Assembly (NCBI GenBank): GCA_964549075.1
Contig: CAZJUB010000028.1
Span: 1-31,075, forward strand
DNA: 31,075 nt
Reading direction: 5' to 3'
Origin: an uncultured archaeon
GTDB taxonomy: Archaea > Asgardarchaeota > Heimdallarchaeia > Heimdallarchaeales > Heimdallarchaeaceae
Shown here: piece after piece, positions 6,364-30,916 of the stretch
Layout of the letters: the number at the start of each line of letters is the position of its first letter
Numbering within the stretch: position 1 is the stretch's first letter
The notes under the pieces: model-generated
Databases searched by the model: none
Seen by the model: the letters and a program-made list of their open reading frames with translations, nothing else
Told to the model about the DNA's origin: nothing
Translations under genes and position numbers: made by a program

Positions 6364-7443
6364 TCACACAACTCTATAAGTCCAATTGTAGGAATCTTGT
6401 ACTTTTCCAGTTTGTATTCCTATCAGTTTGTCATATAATTTTCTTGTTATAGGTCCTACTTCGCCATTGTTAATAAGATATTCTTCATCCTTGTAGAATA
6501 TCTCACCTATTGGAGTAACAGAAGCAGCAGTCCCAACAAAAAACGCTTCAGAACAAGTACCATTCCTAATTTGCTTAGCAATCTCGTTTATATCTAAAAG
6601 TTCTTCATGAGTACTATAACCTAAATCTTCAGCTAGCTGTAAAATTGATTTTCTAGTGACACCGTCAAGGATAGTACCCCTTAAAGAAGGTGTGCAGACT
6701 TCATCATCTACAATAAACATAATATTCATCCCACTTCCTTCTTCAACATATCTACGTTCCCTAGAATCTAACCAAATAACCATTGGATATCCTAGTTCTT
6801 TTGCTTGTTGTGTTTCATAGAGAGTACCAGCGTAATTTCCGCCAGTCTTAGCTTCACCAGTACCACCAGGAGTAGCTCTTACATTTTGTCTAGCTACATA
6901 TGCTTTTGTAGGTTTGAAACCATCTTTGAAGAAAGGTCCAACAGGAGATAGTATTATATAGAAATAAAATTCGTTACTAGGTCTTAGACCTAAAAAGGTT
7001 TCAGAAGCTATCATTGTTGGTCTGATATATAATGAGGTTCCAGGAGATTTAGGAACCCATTCTTTATCTACCCGAACTAGTTCTGTAATTGCTTTGACAA
7101 ATAAATCTTTGTTTATTTTAGGCATACACATTCTTTCAGCAGATAAATTAAATCTCTCAGCATTTTCATAGGGTCTAAACAAATGAATAGACTCATCTGG
7201 ATGACGAAAAGCCTTCATTCCTTCAAAAATTTCTTGACTATAATGTAAAACAGCACATGCTGGATCCATCTCAAAAGATTGGTATGGAATTATTCTTGGA
7301 TTGTCCCATTTTGAATCTTTATAATATATGAAAAACATATGATTGGAGAAAGTTTTTCCAAATACAAGGTCAGAATCTGCGGGAATTGGTTTTTTTTGTT
7401 CTTCTTTGCAGAGAAGAATTGGTATATCCATAAATTCATTCAT
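6364..7443 (-). CDS. ilvE: Branched-chain amino acid aminotransferase (PLP fold type IV)
   Basis: LHYSQEIFEGMKA, LYIRP, KTGGNY (PLP Lys), EEGSGMN, ILDGVTR, GTAA. Confidence 0.96.
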   Translation of the reverse strand: MNEFMDIPILLCKEEQKKPIPADSDLVFGKTFSNHMFFIYYKDSKWDNPRIIPYQSFEMDPACAVLHYSQEIFEGMKAFRHPDESIHLFRPYENAERFNLSAERMCMPKINKDLFVKAITELVRVDKEWVPKSPGTSLYIRPTMIASETFLGLRPSNEFYFYIILSPVGPFFKDGFKPTKAYVARQNVRATPGGTGEAKTGGNYAGTLYETQQAKELGYPMVIWLDSRERRYVEEGSGMNIMFIVDDEVCTPSLRGTILDGVTRKSILQLAEDLGYSTHEELLDINEIAKQIRNGTCSEAFFVGTAASVTPIGEIFYKDEEYLINNGEVGPITRKLYDKLIGIQTGKVQDSYNWTYRVV

Positions 7444-7516: not shown

Positions 7517-8530
7517 TTATTTCATCTTTCTAATGTTTAGTAAATTTGTAAAATGTTGTCTTACTGCTTTTCTGGAAGGCCACAATCTTAATGAGCGGGA
7601 GATAAAATATCTTCCTCCTTTAAGATAAATCACATCAGGTTTGAGCATTGGACACCATAGATGTGCAATTTGCAGCGAAACAGACGCCTTTAATGATTTT
7701 TTAAATTCAGAAGGTTTTATGTTAACTTTATTCTTCTTTAATTCATCTAAATAGATTTTAAGTAATTCATTAAAAGATAATGGAATCTCATTCAATTGTA
7801 CTCTAAATCCTTCGACATGAAACGGTAATAAATCGTAGAAATGAATGAAATCCCAAGAAGGAGGAGCAATTATGCATTCTTGCCAATCTAATATGAAGAT
7901 TTCAGAATCTGTTTGTAAGAAGTTATAAGTCCAAGTTCCACCATGAATCAATGTTATTCCTGTTGAAAGGAGCTTTTCTAAATAGTCTTTAGATTTCAAA
8001 TCCTTCTTTACAATTTCTAAATCTGATTTTGTCAAAGGAGTTTTTCCTTTATAATTTTCAGCTATTTTCAAAGCTTTGGCAATATTATTCTGCAATTCCG
8101 AACTTATAGCTTTCCATTCACTCTGATCTATTTTTGGTAAATCACTGAATTCTGCACCTTCTACATTATTATAGAATTGAGAGTGTAGTTTTGCAATTTC
8201 CTTTAGTGCTCGGATAATATTTTCTTTATCCCAGTCTTTAGGATGAATGCTTTCAGGAATTTTTTCTAATAGTACCCAAGGAACTTCAGATGATTGTGAA
8301 ATAGCTAACACTTTCGGAGCGGGGATCTGGTGCTTTGGTGCAATTTTTGAATATACTAACCATTCTGTTTTTGTGGTATTCTGTTTTAAGATTCCCGATT
8401 TGTTTTTTCCCCATGATATTTCAGAAACTTTAGCATTAGAAGAGCCAGCTAAATCCTTCCTGAACTTAATTTCCTCAGCAGAAATCTTAAGTTTCTTTGC
8501 AACTTCTTCTAGAATAGGAAGACTATTCAA
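7517..8530 (-). CDS. APH/choline-kinase-family phosphotransferase-like protein
   Basis: GSSNAKV P-loop, ILKQ, EWLVY, PAPKVL, VLLEKI, TLIHGGTWTYNFL (Brenner motif with D->G), ILDWQ. TTG start with GGTGA site upstream. Confidence 0.8.
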   Translation of the reverse strand: MNSLPILEEVAKKLKISAEEIKFRKDLAGSSNAKVSEISWGKNKSGILKQNTTKTEWLVYSKIAPKHQIPAPKVLAISQSSEVPWVLLEKIPESIHPKDWDKENIIRALKEIAKLHSQFYNNVEGAEFSDLPKIDQSEWKAISSELQNNIAKALKIAENYKGKTPLTKSDLEIVKKDLKSKDYLEKLLSTGITLIHGGTWTYNFLQTDSEIFILDWQECIIAPPSWDFIHFYDLLPFHVEGFRVQLNEIPLSFNELLKIYLDELKKNKVNIKPSEFKKSLKASVSLQIAHLWCPMLKPDVIYLKGGRYFISRSLRLWPSRKAVRQHFTNLLNIRKMK

Positions 8531-8620
8531 TAAATCACCGATGTTTGATGAATTGCTTTATACTTTTTAACTATTTCTAAACAAAAACAAGTAGCTAAAT
8601 GAGCTTTCTTTATTATTTCA

Positions 8621-8636
8621 AAAAAGATTTTATAAA
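8621..8636 (+). promoter_or_regulatory. BRE/TATA promoter for the 8665 operon
   Basis: AAAAAGA-TTTTATAAA ends 28 nt upstream of the ATG at 8665; no SD sequence. Confidence 0.6.
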
Positions 8637-8664
8637 TAAGTAATTTTATCTTTATGCGATATTT

Positions 8665-9591
8665 ATGAGTAAACATGTTGTTTCTGTCTCTCTTGGTTCT
8701 TCAACAAGAGATTACAAACGTGAATACACTCTCGCTAATGAAACAATCCTTGTAGAAAGAATTGGTACAAATGGAGATATGAAGAAATATAAAGAGCTTA
8801 TTGAAAGTCTAGATGGAAAAGTTGATGCTTTTGGTATAGGTGGAACAGATTTATACCTAAGAAGGGAGGATGATTTATATAAAATCCGAGACATTTGGAA
8901 AAAATTGATTGTTAACGTCAAAGAAACGCCTATGGTTGACGGTGGAGGAATGAAGAAAACCTTAGAAGGGAATATAATGCAATATGTTGAAAAGAAACTT
9001 CCTGAAGAGGTTGAAGAAGATAGATCTTCATTAGCAATGTGTGCGGTTGACAGGTGGCATCAAGCAGAAAGCGTTTGGGAGTTTGTAGGAAGGAACAAGA
9101 AATTAATTACTTTTGGTGATCTCTTATGGGGATTCAAATTAGGGATCCCCTTACATACAATGCGAGGAGTTAGAATACTAGCAAAAATACTGCTTCCTTT
9201 AGTATGTAGATTACCATTTAGTATGCTTTATCCAACAGGAGAAAAACAAGAGGTAAATAAACCCTCTTTCACAAAATATTTCAGACGTGCAAAATGGATT
9301 GCAGGAGATTTCTTATTTATCAAACGTAACATGCCTTTAGATGGGATGAAAGGGAAAATACTAATAACAAATACTACAACTTCCGATGATTTACAGCAAT
9401 TAAAGGAAATAGGAGTAAAATACATTATAACTTCAACACCTAGAATAGAAGGAAGATCATTCGGAACTAACGCTCTTGAAGCTGCTATTGTTGCACTAAG
9501 TGGAGAGAATAGAGAACTTACAAGAACTGAATATGAAGAATTTCTTAAAAAACTCAAAATTGAACCAGTCATTGAGAAATTGCAGGCGTAA
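8665..9591 (+). CDS. Conserved protein of the family auto-annotated 'quinate 5-dehydrogenase' (true function unknown)
   Basis: HVVSVSLGSSTRD, ERIGTNGD, DGKVDAFGIGG, VDGGGMKKTLE, FGDL, LPFSMLYPTG, IAGDF, ITNTTT and GRSFGTN(ALEA) are the blocks I recognise from bacterial members of this family. Confidence 0.75.
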   Translation: MSKHVVSVSLGSSTRDYKREYTLANETILVERIGTNGDMKKYKELIESLDGKVDAFGIGGTDLYLRREDDLYKIRDIWKKLIVNVKETPMVDGGGMKKTLEGNIMQYVEKKLPEEVEEDRSSLAMCAVDRWHQAESVWEFVGRNKKLITFGDLLWGFKLGIPLHTMRGVRILAKILLPLVCRLPFSMLYPTGEKQEVNKPSFTKYFRRAKWIAGDFLFIKRNMPLDGMKGKILITNTTTSDDLQQLKEIGVKYIITSTPRIEGRSFGTNALEAAIVALSGENRELTRTEYEEFLKKLKIEPVIEKLQA

Positions 9592-9595
9592 ATGA

Positions 9596-10408
9596 ATGGA
9601 GAAATATAGTTCAATTATCTTTGCTGGACAAACTGAAAGAGATAAGATACTTTGTGAACAGGAAGGTGTCAAGAAAAAACCATTTTTGAGACTTGGCAAT
9701 AAAATCTTTATTGAGAGGATAGTTGAAGAGTTCTCAAAGTGTGAAGAGATAGGAGATATCTACGTTAGTGGAATGAACCAAAAGGAATGGAAAACAGATC
9801 TGCCTGTCAAATTAATTGATGACCAGAGTACTATTTTTCGAAAAGTTCTCAATATTTATGATAACTATATACAGAAAAAAAAGAACTATTCTGAGATAGT
9901 CGTATTATATTCTTGCGATGGTCCATTAATTAAAGCAGAGATGATATCTAGACATATACAAAGATGCAAAGATGTTTCAGATGGAGACTTGAGTGGAACA
10001 TTCTATTATGCTATTATAGAACGAGAGGTTATGGAAGATAAATTCCCCGATTCTAAAAGATCTTATGTTACTTTCAAAGAATTTGAAGTCTGTGGAGGAG
10101 ATTTAATCATCATAAATGTTGAAAAAATGCTAGTACATGAAAAATTAATTGATGATTTAGTAGAAAAAAGAAAAAATGTTTTAGCTCAGCTAATAGTACT
10201 TAATCCATTCCTCATCATACGTTTTCTATTGAAGAAATTATCAGTTTATAAGTTCATGAAATCTATCAATAGACGGGTATTCAAAATTGAAAAAGGAGTA
10301 TATGCTGTTCTTAGTGATGATCCCGAAGTAGCTATGGATGTTGATAAACCATTCCAACTTGAAGAAGTTAGAAGATATTATAACGAAAATAAAGAGTTGT
10401 ACGATTGA
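9596..10408 (+). CDS. MobA-like NTP-transferase (GT-A nucleotidyltransferase), paralogue 1
   Basis: IIFAG...KKPFLRLGNKIFIE, SCDGPLI, FPDSKRSY, CGGD, RKN, MDVDKP. Confidence 0.85.
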   Translation: MEKYSSIIFAGQTERDKILCEQEGVKKKPFLRLGNKIFIERIVEEFSKCEEIGDIYVSGMNQKEWKTDLPVKLIDDQSTIFRKVLNIYDNYIQKKKNYSEIVVLYSCDGPLIKAEMISRHIQRCKDVSDGDLSGTFYYAIIEREVMEDKFPDSKRSYVTFKEFEVCGGDLIIINVEKMLVHEKLIDDLVEKRKNVLAQLIVLNPFLIIRFLLKKLSVYKFMKSINRRVFKIEKGVYAVLSDDPEVAMDVDKPFQLEEVRRYYNENKELYD

Positions 10409-10436
10409 AGAATATTTATTAATATAATGGCAAGTT

Positions 10437-11015
10437 TTGTTTCTAATGATTGGATTCTTTCAAAAATTGGATAACTGGGATAAAAACTTTTCAAAACGAA
10501 TGGGAAGAACCTCTCCTAAAGTGAAAACTATAGCAAGCTTCTTAGCTTTATCTGGAAATGCACAACCATGGATATTTATCTCTGTTCTATTCTTAATTTT
10601 TGACATATTTTTCAAGAGCCAATCAGATAATTTAGCTCAGCTTTTAGTTATGGGAATAGGAGGTTTAACTGCTACTAGTGTTAAATACATAACTAAACGA
10701 AAGAGACCAGATGAAGAAGTAGCTTTAAAATATATCTCAACAGGAGATCAATACAGCTTCCCAAGCGGACACGCAACAAGGATGGGTATTTTAGCAATGT
10801 TCATGAGTTTATATTATCCAGCTTTTGGATGGATATTCATTTTGTGGGCAATAGGAGTTTGTTGGGCTCGTATATCTTTGCAAATTCATTATTTCCTTGA
10901 TATAACTGGTGGAGTATTAATTGGTTTAAGTTTTGGAGTAGTAACATATTTCTTGATGGATTATCTAGACGTAATACTTGATCCAGTAGCAAACTGGATA
11001 GCTTCATTGTTTTAA
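10437..11015 (+). CDS. PAP2-family membrane lipid phosphatase
   Basis: C1 KYITKRKRP, C2 SFPSGHA, C3 ARISLQIHYFLD; several TM helices. Start could be the ATG at 10446. Confidence 0.93.
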   Translation: MFLMIGFFQKLDNWDKNFSKRMGRTSPKVKTIASFLALSGNAQPWIFISVLFLIFDIFFKSQSDNLAQLLVMGIGGLTATSVKYITKRKRPDEEVALKYISTGDQYSFPSGHATRMGILAMFMSLYYPAFGWIFILWAIGVCWARISLQIHYFLDITGGVLIGLSFGVVTYFLMDYLDVILDPVANWIASLF

Positions 11016-11138: not shown

Positions 11139-12416
11139 ATGACAGAACAAACTACTAATATTGATCCTTGGCAAATGGCCATTAAACAACTTGATAAAGT
11201 AGGAGAAATTCTAAAAATCGATGAGAATATTCTGAAATTACTAAAACATCCTATCAGAATTGTTGAATCCAATTTTCCTGTTGTTATGGATGATGGAAGA
11301 GTAGAGATTTTCACTGGATTTAGAGTACATCACACTGAAAATCTTCCTAATAAAGGAGGGATAAGATTTAGTCCAAATGTCACAAAAGAAGAAGTTATGG
11401 CTTTAGCTTTTTGGATGACTTTTAAATGTGCTGTGGTTGGTTTACCTTATTCTGGTGCTAAAGGTGGAGTGATTTGCAATCCTCGAGAAATGTCTCAAAA
11501 AGAAATAGAGAAAGTTACACGAAGATACACCTATCAAATGATTAATGTTTTCAATCCTAAAGGCGATATTCCTGCTCCAGACATAAATACTAATGCACAA
11601 ACCATGGCATGGATTTACGATAGTTATTCAATGTACAAAGGTCATTCAGAGTTAGGGGTTGTTACTGGTAAACCTGTTGAACTAGGCGGATCTCTTGGAA
11701 GAGCTTCTGCAACAGGAAGAGGAGTATTCTTTGTAACTCGTCAAGCTCTTCAAAAACTTGGACTTCCAGTAGAAGGTGCTACTGTAGCTATCCAAGGTTT
11801 TGGAAATGTTGGTTCTTGGTTTGCTCGAATCGTAGCTGAACACGGAGCTAAAGTTGTAGCTATTTCCGATTGGAAAGGTGGAATTTACAATGAAGCTGGT
11901 TTAGATGTAGAAGATCTTTACAAATATGTTTATGAAAATCCAGAAAATACCGATAAAACTGTTGTTGGTTATTCTAAAATCACTAAGAAAATCACTAACC
12001 AAGAATTGTTTGCTCTTGAAGTAGATGTTCTTGCACCTTGTGCAATTGAAGGTGTAATCACAAAAGATAATGCAGGCGATATAAAGGCAAAAATTCTAGT
12101 TGAAGGAGCAAATGGACCTACTACACCAGGAGCAGATGAGATTCTGCAGAAGAAAGAAATACTTGTTTTTCCAGATGTTTTAGCTAATGCAGGAGGAGTA
12201 ACAGTTAGTTACTTTGAATGGGTTCAAGGAAATGATGCGCTTTTCTGGAAAGAAGAAGAAGTAAATTCAAAGCTAGAAGAGATTATAGTAAGAGCTTTCG
12301 ACAGTGTTTATGATTATGCTGATAGTTGCTGTAACAAAGATTTTCGTACAGCTGCTTATGCAATAGCTCTTGAAAGAATAGTCAAACAATATGAACTGAG
12401 AGGAATTTACCCATAA
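11139..12416 (+). CDS. gdhA: Glutamate dehydrogenase (Glu/Leu/Phe/Val dehydrogenase family)
   Basis: KGGIRF, MTFKCA, GAKGGV, DIPAPD, VTGKP, ATGRG, IQGFGNVG, EGANGP, NAGGVTVSYFEW. Confidence 0.96.
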   Translation: MTEQTTNIDPWQMAIKQLDKVGEILKIDENILKLLKHPIRIVESNFPVVMDDGRVEIFTGFRVHHTENLPNKGGIRFSPNVTKEEVMALAFWMTFKCAVVGLPYSGAKGGVICNPREMSQKEIEKVTRRYTYQMINVFNPKGDIPAPDINTNAQTMAWIYDSYSMYKGHSELGVVTGKPVELGGSLGRASATGRGVFFVTRQALQKLGLPVEGATVAIQGFGNVGSWFARIVAEHGAKVVAISDWKGGIYNEAGLDVEDLYKYVYENPENTDKTVVGYSKITKKITNQELFALEVDVLAPCAIEGVITKDNAGDIKAKILVEGANGPTTPGADEILQKKEILVFPDVLANAGGVTVSYFEWVQGNDALFWKEEEVNSKLEEIIVRAFDSVYDYADSCCNKDFRTAAYAIALERIVKQYELRGIYP

Positions 12417-13412: not shown

Positions 13413-14333
13413 ATGTTGAACATAGAGGAAACCTCTTCAAAGCAAATGGAGGGTATGTTAGTTTATGATCCTTTTGCTGAAGTTCGTACTAAAGTACGCG
13501 TAAGGAGAGCTGGTTCTTGGTACAACATTAGCCTTATCGATATTAATACTAATCCCAGATATGATTACACTTTGATCTGTGTACATGGATGGGGATCTTC
13601 ATGTTTGAACTTCAGATTCCTAATGCGAGATCTTAGTCCTTATTTCAGAATTGTAGCATATGATTTGAAAGGACATGGAGAATCTGCAAAAGGAGAAGAT
13701 AGTTATGATCTAGGAATGTTTACAGAAGAACTAGCTCAGGTAATAGATTATATTCAACCTGAGAAACTGATTCTTGTAGGACATTCGATGGGAACAGCAA
13801 TTGTAATGAACTATTTATCTTTAAATCAGTCTAGAGTTGAAGCTGCGATTATACTTTCTGGAGCAGCTAATTTCCGAGAACCTTTTCCGAAAATCATACC
13901 TTGGTTAATTTTCAGAATGGATGAGAAAATTAAGAATTTCATAGTTTCACTAGCAATGTCTTTTACGAGTTCAAAAAGCGTTCCTGAAGAATTGAAAAAT
14001 GCAATCAAAGAACAATTTTCTAAAGTTCCTTATCATGTTATGAGGAAATCTTTATTGAATACTGTATTTGCTTGGAAAAAAGCGGAAAATCTGCGCAAAA
14101 TAAAAGATCCGATACTATTAATGATTGGTGATAAAGATCCATTAGTTAAGATAAGACATACTGTAGAACTAAGCGCTTTATTATCTAATTCACGATTAGT
14201 TATTTTACCTGATTCAAAGCATGATATTCTTCTTGATAAAGGTACAGAAATCTCAGATTTAGTTAAAGAATTCATAGAGTTCCAGATTGACTTAAAAAGT
14301 GTTGAGAATTTAAAATTTGAAAATAATCAATAA
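13413..14333 (+). CDS. Alpha/beta hydrolase
   Basis: HGWG, DLKGHGES, GHSMG nucleophile, GDKD acid, SKH histidine. Confidence 0.93.
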   Translation: MLNIEETSSKQMEGMLVYDPFAEVRTKVRVRRAGSWYNISLIDINTNPRYDYTLICVHGWGSSCLNFRFLMRDLSPYFRIVAYDLKGHGESAKGEDSYDLGMFTEELAQVIDYIQPEKLILVGHSMGTAIVMNYLSLNQSRVEAAIILSGAANFREPFPKIIPWLIFRMDEKIKNFIVSLAMSFTSSKSVPEELKNAIKEQFSKVPYHVMRKSLLNTVFAWKKAENLRKIKDPILLMIGDKDPLVKIRHTVELSALLSNSRLVILPDSKHDILLDKGTEISDLVKEFIEFQIDLKSVENLKFENNQ

Positions 14334-26831: not shown

Positions 26832-27212
26832 TTAAGACAATTCTAGTTTATTTTTTAGGATTCTTACCCATGTTTCTAAATCATTTACTAACCAAGCAAT
26901 AGAATCTTGTTTTCCATTTTTGTTTATGAAAAATACTTTTAGTAATTTACGTCCTTTCGTTTTCCCTAGATGACTCTTTACTATATCGATTTTATTGATT
27001 AAATTAAGGGGAATTAGGAAATCTTTACGTGGTATAAGCATTCCAAAAAAAAGCTCTGTTTCAGAAAGAATAAGAATTCCATTACCTCTCACTTGTTTTA
27101 GACCTAAAGATTCTTGTCCAAATGAATTAGCGTTTGTTGGTCCAAGGATAATTGTTCTCTCATCAAATTTTGATAATATCTCAAGTTTTCTTTTCTTAAA
27201 CACCTTATACAC
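26832..27212 (-). CDS. Small PH-like (GRAM/bPH) fold protein
   Basis: ANSFGQES...QVRGNGILILSETELFF...IPLNLI...LLKVFF...SIAWLVNDLETWVRIL: beta strands followed by a terminal helix with Trp. Confidence 0.6.
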   Translation of the reverse strand: MYKVFKKRKLEILSKFDERTIILGPTNANSFGQESLGLKQVRGNGILILSETELFFGMLIPRKDFLIPLNLINKIDIVKSHLGKTKGRKLLKVFFINKNGKQDSIAWLVNDLETWVRILKNKLELS

Positions 27213-28071
27213 CTGAATTTTGCATGTATTTCAAAATAATATCAATTATAGGTTTGGAATGTGTGTTTTTATTTGTTTTCAGATCAAGGAAAATACTATT
27301 CTTTATAATTTCATTTATTTTCTGTGTCATTTCTGTATCATGCATTCTATCCACACTTTCATCTACAACTAAAACTTGATTGTCGAAACCTGCATAAGAA
27401 TCCCAGAATAACTTATTGAAGAAATGTTTTGAAGTCTTTTTCCACTTTAAGGGATCTCCTTCAATTATTGCACGGGCATATTTAGCTGCATGATATTCAT
27501 CTTCTGCTTTGAAGTGTTTAACCCAAAAAATTCCGATAGGTTTGACTATCGCATATAACCATATGGGGAAAATTGTTAAGAGAATTCTTATTGAACGAGG
27601 AAGAGGTATTCTTTCTATTGGTCCTATGAAAACGCTAAGAAAAGGTGATATCATCTTATGAGATAACATATATGCTACTAGCATTGAACTAAAAGATGAT
27701 GAAAGTACAACAACTCTATTTTGATCTAGGTGCAGGAATTCAAATATCTCCTTTATATCCAGAGTAAATCTTTGTGCATCAAATATAGAATCTTTTGTTA
27801 CTTTGCTTGTTCCTTTTTCTCGTGTCTCAATATAAACTACGTTAAAATGTTTCTTTGCTTCCATTAATACTTCATTCCATCCCATAATAATTGAAGCCCA
27901 ACCTGCAATTAGTACCAAAGTAAAAGGCTTAGTTTCTTTTGATTCAGTAGAGCTTCTAAGTATACGAAGCTCACAACCATCTGAAACTTTTACCCAAGAA
28001 ATTTCTGCTATTTTTTCGAATTCTGATAAAGCTAAAAGATCAAATTTAGTTGCATCCTTCTTCTTTTTCAT
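27205..28071 (-). CDS. Alpha/beta-hydrolase-fold protein with atypical nucleophile elbow
   Basis: LVLIAGW, VVYIETREKGTS, VVLSSSFSS (GxSxG position), DESVD, KNTH. Confidence 0.75.
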   Translation of the reverse strand: MKKKKDATKFDLLALSEFEKIAEISWVKVSDGCELRILRSSTESKETKPFTLVLIAGWASIIMGWNEVLMEAKKHFNVVYIETREKGTSKVTKDSIFDAQRFTLDIKEIFEFLHLDQNRVVVLSSSFSSMLVAYMLSHKMISPFLSVFIGPIERIPLPRSIRILLTIFPIWLYAIVKPIGIFWVKHFKAEDEYHAAKYARAIIEGDPLKWKKTSKHFFNKLFWDSYAGFDNQVLVVDESVDRMHDTEMTQKINEIIKNSIFLDLKTNKNTHSKPIIDIILKYMQNSGV

Positions 28072-28154: not shown

Positions 28155-28958
28155 ATGATTTTCGATGCAATAATTTTAGCTGGAAAGAGTGAAAAAGATG
28201 ATGCTCTTTTACAACTTGAAAAAGTTCCAGCAAAAGGTTTTCTTAAACTTGGTAAGAAAATGTTCTTAGAACATCAAGTTGGTGTTATTGGACAATTGAA
28301 AGATATAAGAAATATCTACATTAGTGGTATGGCTGAAAAAGATTGGAAGACAGAACTTCCATTCCCGGTGATTTTCGATGAAGTTCAAGCTGGAATAATA
28401 GAAAAACTAAGGCATTTCAGACATGATGTTTTTACCCCAGAAACAGAACCAGATTATGTAATAATTATATCTAGTGATACTCCGCTGATAACCAAAGAAG
28501 CTGTTGAGAGATTTATTGAGAAATGTAAAAAAGCTACAGATGGTGAATTGAAAGCACTGTATTATATGTCCTTAATAGATGAAAAAGTGATGACTGCAAA
28601 ATTCCCTGAATCTAATAGATCGTATCTGAAGTTAAAGGATGTAAAATGGTGTGCTGGTGATACTCTCCTTGCTAAACCATCAATTATTGACACTCATGGA
28701 GATGTTCTTGATCAACTTATAAATAGCAGAAAGTCTGTATTCAAATCTTTGTTTGTTTTAAGTCCTTGGACAGTTGTAAAAATTATGATCGGTCAATTAA
28801 CACTAGATGGATTCAACAATGCGATTAACAAATATCTCTTTAAACAACCAAATTCATGCTTAGGAATTCTTGCGGATGATCCAGAATTAGGAATGGATGT
28901 AGACAAACCATTTCAACTAGAAATTGTAAGAGAATACTATGCTAAAATGAAAAAATAA
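28155..28958 (+). CDS. MobA-like NTP-transferase, paralogue 2
   Basis: DAIILAG, KGFLKLGKKMFLE, SSDTPLI, FPESNRSY, CAGD, RKS, MDVDKPFQLE. Confidence 0.87.
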   Translation: MIFDAIILAGKSEKDDALLQLEKVPAKGFLKLGKKMFLEHQVGVIGQLKDIRNIYISGMAEKDWKTELPFPVIFDEVQAGIIEKLRHFRHDVFTPETEPDYVIIISSDTPLITKEAVERFIEKCKKATDGELKALYYMSLIDEKVMTAKFPESNRSYLKLKDVKWCAGDTLLAKPSIIDTHGDVLDQLINSRKSVFKSLFVLSPWTVVKIMIGQLTLDGFNNAINKYLFKQPNSCLGILADDPELGMDVDKPFQLEIVREYYAKMKK

Positions 28959-30049: not shown

Positions 30050-30916
30050 ATGAAAATTAAAATTACAACTGATGTAACAACTTGTATCCCAAAAGATGTT
30101 GCAGATAAAAATGATATTGAGTTTATTGAGTTTTATTTGAATATAGATGGTAAGCCTACTAAAGAACTATCAGAAATTGATAGAGAGAAATTTATGAACG
30201 AATTACAAGATATGGATCCCTTTCCTACTTCTAATTTTCCCAGTCCTCAAGATTATCTTGAAGCTTTTCAGAAGATACTTGATGATGGGTATGATGAGAT
30301 ATTCCACATCGGACTTAGTCCTAACATTTCAGGAGCGTTAAACTCTGCTAAAGCTGCTGCCAAAAGGCTGAAAAATGCAAAAATTACTATCTATGATAGT
30401 GGTATAATGGCTCCAAGTCAAGGTGCAATGGTTCTTATGATTGTAAAGCTGCTGAAAAAAGGAAAAAAACCTGATGAAATTATAAAATACTTAGAATCCA
30501 TTAAACACAATATCTATGGAGCAGGCTTATCGGTGAATTTTGATATACTCTTTAAAACAGGTAGAGTGAAGAAAAGTGCTGGACTGACAGTTATTTCTTC
30601 CTTGATGAAACTTAAACCTTTGTTTGAATTAAATTTCGAAACGGGAGTAACTGGAATAGGCGGAGGAGCTGGCTTTAATGGAGCTATTAAGAAAATTGTA
30701 CAAAACATTGTTGAAAAAACTGATGAAACATTAACTTATGATCTTATAATGACAGATGCAGGTGACCCTGAACTACTGAAAAAACTAGAAGAAAAAGTTA
30801 AGAAAGTGAGAACAATTAAAAACGTTCTTCACTGGCCAATGGTTTCTATGATGATTCATACTTGCGGAAAAGGTTCAGTAATGGCAACCTTAGCTCCAAC
30901 AATTGATGAGGTTTAG
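30050..30916 (+). CDS. DegV family (FakB-like fatty-acid-binding) protein
   Basis: KIKITTD, PSPQDY, LSPNISGA, IYDSG, LFKTGRV, LMKLKP, IHTCG. AGGTGG site upstream. Confidence 0.92.
   Translation: MKIKITTDVTTCIPKDVADKNDIEFIEFYLNIDGKPTKELSEIDREKFMNELQDMDPFPTSNFPSPQDYLEAFQKILDDGYDEIFHIGLSPNISGALNSAKAAAKRLKNAKITIYDSGIMAPSQGAMVLMIVKLLKKGKKPDEIIKYLESIKHNIYGAGLSVNFDILFKTGRVKKSAGLTVISSLMKLKPLFELNFETGVTGIGGGAGFNGAIKKIVQNIVEKTDETLTYDLIMTDAGDPELLKKLEEKVKKVRTIKNVLHWPMVSMMIHTCGKGSVMATLAPTIDEV

Follow-up and report, generated by a model that had tools for sequence, protein, structure and literature searches.

What does a compact three-gene operon at positions 8665–11015 of a contig from an uncultured archaeon of the Heimdallarchaeaceae (CAZJUB010000028.1 of assembly GCA_964549075.1; the whole analysed stretch of 31,075 nucleotides is termed the window below) contribute to its host? 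All three genes lie on the forward strand and encode, in this order, a member of a family whose homologues are named "quinate 5-dehydrogenase" by NCBI and for which the label Q5DH family is used here (8665–9591, ATG at 8665, 308 aa), a nucleoside triphosphate (NTP) transferase of the type of TTHA0179 from Thermus thermophilus (9596–10408, ATG at 9596, 270 aa), and a PAP2 phosphatase (10437–11015, TTG start, 192 aa). As read from the sequence, the TAA of the Q5DH gene (9589–9591) is followed after 4 nt by the ATG of the NTP transferase gene (9596), and the TGA of the latter (10406–10408) after 28 nt by the TTG of the PAP2 gene (10437), or after 37 nt if the alternative in-frame ATG at 10446 is used. 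The operon represents the Heimdallarchaeal form of an uncharacterised module widespread in bacteria, with the Q5DH gene and the TTHA0179-type NTP transferase gene as its core, and we hold with high confidence that 8665–11015 is a conserved functional module. Of the roles considered, the one with most support is a step in membrane biochemistry that depends on nucleotide activation and concerns either a lipid head group or a carrier lipid.

Metagenomes were scanned with an alignment of the Q5DH family, by which 551 relatives were confirmed, and the best 80 of these 551 were analysed together with their neighbourhoods. Downstream sequence of 1600 nt or more was available for 47 loci, and the order Q5DH, NTP transferase, and PAP2 on one strand was found in 41 of them; in the other six, the Q5DH gene was followed by an acyl-ACP reductase (AAR)-like gene instead (three loci), by what was scored as PAP2 only (one locus, L035), or by neither (two loci). 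On inspection, L035 also carried an NTP transferase gene and is the 42nd locus with the complete order. When at least 900 nt downstream were required (56 loci), an NTP transferase gene was present in 48, an AAR-like gene in five, and neither in three. The contigs with the module had GC contents of 0.40–0.68 and unrelated flanks. The genes form a tight operon of bacterial type, in keeping with the bacterial-type pathway inferred in the earlier note on this DNA. The median gap between the Q5DH and NTP transferase genes was 53.5 nt (n = 38), and the spacing between the NTP transferase and PAP2 genes was −4 nt, i.e., a 4-nt overlap, in 18 of 30 pairs called at bacterial loci with a simple open reading frame (ORF) caller; the two genes are apparently translationally coupled in most lineages. 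Within the Asgard archaea, the NTP transferase gene was located directly downstream of the Q5DH gene in 17 of the 21 Q5DH-bearing genomes.

The linkage was also followed by presence and absence in 301 sampled genomes of the GTDB phylum to which genome G210 belongs (referred to as the Bacillota-type phylum). The Q5DH gene was detected in 227 and a TTHA0179-type NTP transferase gene in 224 of them; both were present in 220, Q5DH alone in seven, the NTP transferase alone in four, and neither in 70, with kinship of the genomes being ignored, so that the association is overstated by its Fisher p-value. In G210, the NTP transferase gene stands apart from the Q5DH gene, between a GHMP kinase/GntR pair and purR-spoVG-glmU-prs. 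Because both genes are found in 220 of 301 genomes and the NTP transferase gene is located elsewhere in G210, the link between them holds even where they are not adjacent. What follows the Q5DH gene in this phylum is a reductase-type gene: in Thermovorax, Fervidicola, and a metagenome-assembled genome of the Tepidanaerobacteraceae, the order is helix-turn-helix (HTH) regulator, Q5DH, and a 367-aa protein which matched the PigE N-terminal domain of NCBIfam with 231 bits and PDB entry 4ppm at 7e-34, and also AAR (TIGR04058 with 125 bits, below the cut-off; 6jzq at 1e-23). In the best 12 loci of the phylum (L132–L143), the Q5DH gene was followed by such an AAR/PigE-N-like reductase gene in 12 of 12, and an HTH regulator was encoded upstream in 11, L143 starting too near the contig end to tell. 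A family-less 321-aa protein was often encoded upstream of this triad (L009 4415–8022; L132–L143). The third partner of the core pair, a PAP2 or an AAR-like gene, is so a matter of lineage.

For the Q5DH protein, neither Pfam nor NCBIfam gave a family at E ≤ 0.01, and no sequence relative was obtained from the PDB even at E 10. It belongs to a highly conserved family of great size, 7124 of the 8000 scored candidates being homologues at E ≤ 0.001. Identity was 64–88% to Heimdall relatives and 46–52% to bacterial ones (Anaerolineae, Chloroflexota, Calderihabitans). Look-alikes in the ESM Atlas were bacterial clusters with Deinococcota and Bacillota as the commonest phyla, and homologue names and Atlas taxa agree with the statement in the earlier note of a family spread over Deinococcota, Chloroflexota, and Bacillota. 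In an alignment of 38 sequences, 42 columns were invariant, with Gly, Ser, Thr, Arg, Asp, Asn, and Pro as the prevailing residues; Cys occupied neither an invariant nor a nearly invariant column of these sequences. The AlphaFold2 (AF2) model (predicted local distance difference test (pLDDT) 93.5, predicted template modelling score 0.91) gave only weak matches with Foldseek against the PDB (template modelling score (TM) 0.30–0.45, AAR reaching 0.45). In an exhaustive VIA fold search, AAR 6jzq_A was the best entry (Z 14.1, root-mean-square deviation (rmsd) 4.6, 252 aligned residues), followed by the carmabin thioester-reductase didomain (TAD) 9e4s_A (Z 12.3), with 252–259 residues aligned across both top entries, above a background of about 9 formed by LacI and periplasmic-binding-protein folds. 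The protein is thus predicted to adopt a two-domain Rossmann-like fold with acyl-ACP reductase as its closest match.

Measured against the acyl-ACP reductases (TIGR04058), the fold agrees, and the sequence and the catalytic Cys do not. Because VIA gave a Z of 14.1 without any sequence match and without an invariant Cys, it is the fold only that the family would share with AAR: the AAR-type two-domain architecture without the AAR sequence, without the Cys nucleophile and, as judged by eye, without a glycine-rich NAD(P) loop. AAR activity was hence dropped for this protein on account of the missing invariant Cys. A true quinate or shikimate dehydrogenase was considered as well and rejected, since no match to Shikimate_DH/AroE was obtained in Pfam or NCBIfam and shikimate dehydrogenase 2hk9 reached a Z of 8.0 only, inside the VIA background; the NCBI name of the family is not supported.

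Families of the window proteins were called from Pfam and NCBIfam profile matches against the curated cut-offs, and no NCBIfam match above any cut-off was obtained among the operon proteins and the divergently encoded kinase-like protein described below. For the NTP transferase, Pfam returned CTP_transf_3 with 26.9 bits (cut-off 22.6) and NTP_transf_3 with 26.6 bits (just under the cut-off of 27). An exhaustive search of representatives yielded 785 relatives at E ≤ 0.001, only three of which were below 1e-30, and the bacterial relatives were about 24–32% identical. A family profile (A2; 51 sequences, 259 positions) searched against the PDB matched 2dpw, the structure of TTHA0179, at E 3.8e-54 over profile positions 4–247 of 259. 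The next PDB matches followed at 1e-9 to 1e-5 and covered the N-terminal half only: GlmU, KdsB, CMP-NeuAc synthetase, CobY (3rsb, 3e-06), IspD, FbiD (9.3e-06), MobA (about 6e-05), and LicC (1jyk, 1.6e-05, profile positions 3–73 only). Foldseek with the AF2 model (pLDDT 95.8) placed 2dpw first (E 1.8e-16, TM 0.74/0.86, rmsd 3.0) and KdsB, GlmU, CMP-NeuAc synthetase, IspD, and TarI after it at TM 0.52–0.59. As 2dpw was matched over its full length and all others over the N-terminal half only, the protein represents a distinct TTHA0179-type subfamily, the nearest characterised neighbours of which are mostly cytidylyltransferases.

Grouping with true MobA, CobY, or CofC, by which the earlier note would have been contradicted, was not observed: the MobA equivalog NF001457 scored 24.3 bits against a cut-off of 164, no CofC match was obtained in Pfam for the operon copy, and the TTHA0179 match at 3.8e-54 prevailed. 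The statement in the earlier note that the family includes CpgD, the CTP:phosphoglycerate cytidylyltransferase of Caulobacter, was not supported. Passages of PMC12275187 describe CpgD as COG1213/IMPCT-type and LicC-like with IMPCT 4JD0 as its top structural match, and a passage of the CpgD structure preprint notes likeness to choline-phosphate cytidylyltransferase; neither CpgD nor 4JD0 was among the matches listed (best 60 of 81 profile matches; Foldseek ranks 1–50). In the family alignment, G11, K28, D108, P110, and D250 are kept, with K28 nearly invariant and D108 invariant. When these positions are equated by eye with R16, K26, and D112 of the CpgD active site as given in passages of PMC12275187, K28 and D108 are kept and an invariant Arg in the N-terminal loop is missing.

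The third operon protein matched PF01569 with 73.7 bits (cut-off 27.2; E 1.5e-20). The PAP2 catalytic motifs, for which we presume the definitions KX6RP, PSGH, and SRX5HX3D, were found as K83-x6-R90-P91, P109-S110-G111-H112, and R145-x5-H151-x3-D155 and were kept in at least 36 of 37 sequences; in alignment A4 they are invariant, except for G111, which is nearly invariant. The third motif starts with AR145 in the window protein, where the definition has SR. Three 19-residue segments passed the hydropathy threshold, topology being judged by eye. The protein is a predicted integral-membrane phosphatase with intact catalytic motifs. PAP2 enzymes of comparable size and topology have lipid phosphates as substrates in nearly all characterised cases. 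The best NCBIfam matches were undecaprenyl-diphosphatases, among them SepP (51 bits) and PRK11837 (37 bits), and none of these scores came near the respective cut-off.

Divergent from the operon, a kinase-like gene (7517–8530, reverse strand, 337 aa, TTG start) with an APH/EcKL-like kinase fold is separated from the Q5DH gene by 134 nt of AT-rich intergenic sequence (8531–8664), which presumably is the site of both promoters; a TATA-like TTTATAAATA was spotted by eye about 27–36 nt upstream of the ATG at 8665. The tight operon with its two short gaps and the head-to-head kinase-like gene, and thus all four ORFs, read as they had been described in the earlier note. The kinase-first logic attached to them there, i.e., that a kinase supplies the phosphorylated substrate for the nucleotidyltransferase, was not supported. 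The kinase-like protein passed the Pfam cut-offs for APH (PF01636, 29.9 bits; cut-off 23.2) and EcKL (23.9; cut-off 22), and no PDB sequence match was obtained at E ≤ 0.1. Its catalytic loop, assigned by eye, reads HGG in five of five sequences of the window's genus (H196-G-G...N203 in the window), where the APH signature, which we take to be HGD, is present in the G003 homologue; the later D215-W-Q-E is retained. The APH profile is matched, and the H-x-D...N with the Asp base is not. Next to the module, the gene was encountered in two Heimdall genera only, namely the window's genus g1 (L001, L005, L007, L008) and that of G003; it was not located beside the module in G026, G142, and the loci of families f2 and f4, and no match was found in any of the 80 metagenome loci. 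A kinase as the obligatory first step was rejected on these grounds. The gene is at most a lineage-specific accessory, and because its product possibly lacks activity or has no connection with the module, the kinase-first logic is the weakest part of the earlier scheme.

From gene linkage, co-occurrence, folds, and motif integrity we infer the following route, which in our estimate could equally turn out right or wrong in its details. The Q5DH protein would make or modify a small anionic, probably phosphorylated, precursor, a step suggested by the AAR-like fold, glycine-rich loops, and invariant Ser, Thr, Arg, and Asp in the absence of an invariant Cys. The NTP transferase would couple this precursor to a nucleoside monophosphate, probably from CTP. 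The activated group would end on a membrane lipid, and the PAP2 protein would remove the remaining phosphate or supply or recycle the lipid acceptor.

A lipid role is suggested because of the PAP2 gene and because lipid genes adjoin the module in other lineages. In G026, a CarS-like gene (PF01864 at 4.4e-27; 122 bits against the CarS equivalog cut-off of 148) is inserted between the Q5DH and NTP transferase genes, and in metagenome locus L032, a lipid-kinase-type gene (DAGK_cat/YegS_C) occupies the same place. In G015, a gene for a GGR-like flavoprotein is located directly upstream of the NTP transferase–PAP2 pair. The DegV genes on both sides of the window's NTP transferase paralogue (see below), the AAR/PigE-type acyl-thioester reductase encoded after Q5DH in the 12 Bacillota-type loci, and the cytidylyltransferase-like structural neighbours of the NTP transferase model also speak for the inferred route. 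Lack of linkage to lipid genes had been named in the earlier note as evidence against its proposal; linkage of the homologues was observed to a membrane PAP2 gene and, in single lineages, to further lipid genes.

Several points weigh against a lipid head-group role. Neither a CDP-alcohol phosphotransferase nor any other head-group transferase was found inside the module, and each lipid neighbour is confined to one lineage. The other recurrent neighbours are of a non-lipid kind, i.e., bact-PGI, TP_methylase, and class IV aminotransferase genes in the metagenome loci and ispE, purR, and glmU in G210. The active site of the PAP2 protein would, by an analogy with solved PAP2 enzymes that we assume to apply, face outward, away from a cytoplasmic nucleoside diphosphate-linked donor. 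In the Bacillota-type phylum, the PAP2 profile gave weak generic hits in 132 of 301 genomes, some of them without Q5DH, and a specific partner is not shown there. The Q5DH protein is without a sequence-level relative of known function, with hhalign giving a probability of 0.28 for its comparison with the AAR-like neighbour protein. Finally, genomes within one phylum are not independent, and the metagenome loci are the most query-like 80 of 551.

Some of these points would be accommodated by a carrier-lipid or surface-polymer route, in which a sugar acid or polyol prepared by the Q5DH protein is activated by the NTP transferase as its CMP or CDP derivative, and the PAP2 protein recycles the undecaprenyl or dolichyl diphosphate that is released on the outside once a glycan or teichoic-like polymer has received the group. 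An outward-facing PAP2 site, if the assumed analogy holds, fits such recycling; the undecaprenyl-diphosphatases are the best NCBIfam matches of the PAP2 protein; and KdsB, CMP-NeuAc synthetase, IspD, and TarI are, next to TTHA0179, among the nearest structures to the NTP transferase model, with CTP_transf_3 as the best Pfam family. The CarS-like protein of G026, which scored below its equivalog cut-off, might for this reason be a paralogue that serves a different function in lipid-phosphate chemistry. However, the scores of the PAP2 matches are far under the family cut-offs, no glycosyltransferase, flippase, or polymerase gene recurs beside the module in the 80 metagenome loci, and the presence of both core genes in 220 of 301 genomes suggests a core function instead of a variable surface polymer. 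We regard this route as possible, with the chances clearly against it.

The model of the earlier note was more specific: CDP-glycerate would be formed as by CpgD, for a lipid of the phosphoglycerate or N-glyceroyl-alkylamine type as in Thermus, Deinococcus, and some Bacillota, with the kinase supplying the phospho-substrate. The Q5DH family does occur in Deinococcota and Bacillota, the AAR/PigE-N-type reductase encoded after Q5DH in all 12 Bacillota-type loci could supply the fatty aldehyde for an alkylamine, and CpgD is a precedent for CTP:phosphoglycerate cytidylyltransferases (passages of PMC12275187). In passages of PMC9636437, the enzymes for the third chain and the head group of the Thermus phosphoglycolipid are reported as unidentified in 2022, and a table of PMC13274423 reports N-glyceroyl alkylamine lipids in Bacillota; in a literature search on the biosynthesis of N-glyceroyl alkylamine lipids and the phosphoglycolipid, no paper naming pathway genes was found. 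Against this model, CpgD is described as COG1213/IMPCT-like, as stated above, and was absent among the matches listed; FbiD, which uses 3-phosphoglycerate, matched the family profile no better than other NTP transferases did; and the kinase, with its HGG, is not conserved alongside the module. An AAR/PigE-type reductase, searched for with a single protein as query, was found neither in the source genome (G000) nor in any of the 41 genomes of the order, so the glyceroyl-alkylamine idea could not be upheld for the Heimdall archaeon, and AAR hits in the metagenome loci were restricted to six loci of AAR context, none occurring in those of NTP transferase–PAP2 context. Moreover, with Q5DH in 227 of 301 genomes, the gene pair is carried by about 73–75% of the Bacillota-type phylum, far above the "several" reported lipid makers. 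The model as a whole is improbable; its alkylamine part is a testable lead for bacteria and unlikely for the Heimdall locus.

Doubtful to a like degree is a soluble metabolite or cofactor pathway, in which a nucleotide-linked small molecule without relation to membrane lipids is the joint product of the Q5DH protein and the NTP transferase, and the PAP2 protein either acts on a soluble phospho-intermediate or is a passenger. In the Bacillota-type phylum, the two core genes co-occur without a demonstrable specific PAP2 partner and have housekeeping surroundings (coaX-dus-...-greA-lysS and ispE-GntR-NTP transferase-purR-spoVG-glmU-prs), and genes for amino acid metabolism are found near the module elsewhere: a class IV aminotransferase gene in eight metagenome loci, and at the Heimdall locus, branched-chain aminotransferase (ilvE, 6364–7443) and glutamate dehydrogenase (gdh, 11139–12416), called with Pfam, as flanks. 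A passenger role of the PAP2 gene is opposed by the 4-nt overlap with the NTP transferase gene in 18 of 30 pairs and by the gene order kept in 41 of 47 loci, and a soluble substrate by the preference of PAP2 enzymes for lipid phosphates and by the lipid genes inserted inside the module in two lineages. The class IV aminotransferase gene is located directly upstream of and divergent from the Q5DH gene (L042, L059, L084–L086, L090, L091, L093), and L023 has a GDH-like gene after the NTP transferase gene, the Heimdall locus itself lying between ilvE and gdh; these neighbours may reflect lineage synteny or hint at an amino- or keto-acid substrate. That there is no functional unit and adjacency is due to chance or to synteny among close genomes is hardly credible, as bacterial contigs of GC 0.40–0.68 with unrelated flanks show the same arrangement and the 301 genomes divide into 220, 7, 4, and 70, even though the entire neighbourhood (MazG, IlvE, kinase, GDH, ZIP) is syntenic in the window's genus, for which reason genus-level conservation by itself says little.

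For the distribution in the Asgard archaea, 201 genomes were sampled, and the 41 genomes of the window's order were used for order-level counts. The Q5DH gene was present in 21 of the 201 genomes, all of which belong to this order (13 of 21 in family f1, five of seven in f2, two of two in f4, and G000), and in 0 of 169 Asgard genomes of other families. The NTP transferase family at E ≤ 1e-25 was found in 28 of 201 genomes, again only in this order; overall it was detected in 36 of the 41 genomes, with up to six copies per genome and tandem arrays. Arrays of four paralogues in tandem were observed in L113 (6759–11045, G130:C9) and also in G045:C88, G115:C144, and G068:C1, and the arrays adjoin LigB-like, nitroreductase, and several family-less genes. 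In a quick, unrooted tree of 82 Q5DH sequences, the operon-type Heimdall copies formed one clade (Shimodaira–Hasegawa-like approximate likelihood ratio test (SH-aLRT) 100) with a clade of AAR-context sequences of Bacillota as its sister (98), and a second Heimdall clade (93) was placed among bacterial sequences of NTP transferase context. Members of this second clade (about 41–47% identical; L024, L025 6960–7871, L026, L028) are mostly without an adjacent NTP transferase gene; they include one tandem pair (G166), and one copy each is located near an ACP_syn_III_C-type gene and near an acyl-CoA dehydrogenase gene. The NTP transferase tree, likewise quick and unrooted, contained at least three deep Heimdall clades, with the window's two copies as sisters (SH-aLRT 100) and the operon copy of G026 in another clade, which is also represented in the G003 operon. 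The pattern in these trees fits an uptake from bacteria close to the base of the order with duplication thereafter; being quick and unrooted, they leave the direction of transfer unset.

Further genes of the window and its source genome touch on the proposed role. An alpha/beta-hydrolase gene (13413–14333, forward strand; Abhydrolase_1, E 1.4e-30) is a possible accessory member of the module: its orthologue in G003 (L114:11253–12263, E 1.2e-102) is located directly after the PAP2 gene, and so is an Abhydrolase_1 gene in G026 (L027:11277–12206). Between the PAP2 gene and gdh, some genomes of the window's genus have an inserted gene for a right-handed beta-helix/NosD-like protein of 426 aa (L001 8436–9716), which is absent from the window, and a Caroten_synth (PF04240) membrane-protein gene was recorded in eight metagenome loci, in at least four of them (L047, L073, L095, L104) directly upstream of and divergent from the Q5DH gene. 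The second NTP transferase gene of the window (28155–28958, forward strand), a paralogue of the operon copy (family HMM E 4.2e-75; phmmer 6.3e-61 to the operon copy), stands between two genes of the fatty-acid-binding DegV family (PF02645; 28976–29854, reverse strand, and 30050–30916, forward strand). Divergent from it, a 288-aa protein with weak similarity to the alpha/beta hydrolase is encoded (27205–28071, reverse strand), of which there are seven further paralogues in G000.

In G000, which is 89.7% complete, two CarS-like genes, two CDP-alcohol phosphotransferase genes on contigs other than that of the module, and three matches to PlsY (PF02660) together with two to Dak2 (PF02734) (contigs C173, C9, C79, C101, and C25) were found, and a PlsC match (PF01553) was absent from the assembled part; the genome so holds a bacterial-type acyl-phosphate toolkit without a second acyltransferase. 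This content agrees with PMC6431249 and PMC8813620, in passages of which PlsY is reported in Heimdallarchaeota and PlsC is described as lacking in Heimdallarchaeum.

Few known archaea are as closely related to eukaryotes as the Heimdallarchaea, and the way in which membrane chemistry of bacterial type came into their lineage is an open question, to which the locus contributes a complete bacterial-type, membrane-linked module in addition to the PlsY, DegV, and Dak2 genes of the genome. The Q5DH–NTP transferase pair is among the more widespread uncharacterised gene pairs in this analysis, with one partner lacking a described domain, and tractable carriers (Thermus, Deinococcus, clostridia) make its function directly testable. 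As a speculation for which we would claim only a small chance, the pair could be the core of an undiscovered envelope-lipid pathway in most of the Bacillota-type phylum, Chloroflexota, and Deinococcota, with PAP2 or the AAR-type reductase as lineage partners; in bacteria, N-glyceroyl-alkylamine or other phosphoglycolipids might be made by this route, which would then be the missing one, and it might have been taken up once or twice by the ancestor of the Heimdallarchaeal order, where archaeal or mixed lipids would receive a head group of bacterial type from it.

Among the known systems closest to the module is TTHA0179 itself (2dpw, "hypothetical transferase"), which shares a C-terminal helical extension and an acidic ...DVDKP... 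end with the window NTP transferase at about 21% identity and is itself without a known function; no paper on TTHA0179 or on the neighbouring tags TTHA0177, TTHA0178, TTHA0180, and TTHA0181 was found in a literature search. CpgD (CCNA_01210) has the same broad alpha/beta/alpha nucleotidyltransferase fold and provides an example of lipid synthesis with an acidic head group activated by CDP (passages of PMC12275187 and PMC13228409); it differs in being described as COG1213/IMPCT- and LicC-like, LicC 1jyk matching only the first 70 or so positions of the NTP transferase profile. For the Q5DH protein, AAR 6jzq and the PigE and carmabin reductase domains are the best fold matches, yet there is no sequence similarity to AAR or PigE, A-V-D-R-x-G is found by eye where these have the glycine-rich NAD(P) loop, and the true AAR/PigE-N homologue is the product of the next gene in Bacillota-type genomes.

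At the level of gene sets, the module resembles the Kennedy/Lic and PgsA/PgpB routes in that its operon encodes a nucleotidyltransferase together with a PAP2 phosphatase and is joined, in the window's genus, by an adjacent gene of choline-kinase/APH fold. In contrast to those routes, it includes neither a CDP-alcohol phosphotransferase nor LicD, its kinase is not conserved and is without the Asp of HGD, and the extra Q5DH enzyme is its most conserved member. The TarI/TarJ and IspC/IspD pairs are similar in that a Rossmann-type two-domain enzyme is encoded directly upstream of an IspD/TarI-like cytidylyltransferase, but the Q5DH protein has no recognisable NAD(P) motif or relation to TarJ or DXR, and the PAP2 phosphatase of the module is without a counterpart in those pairs.

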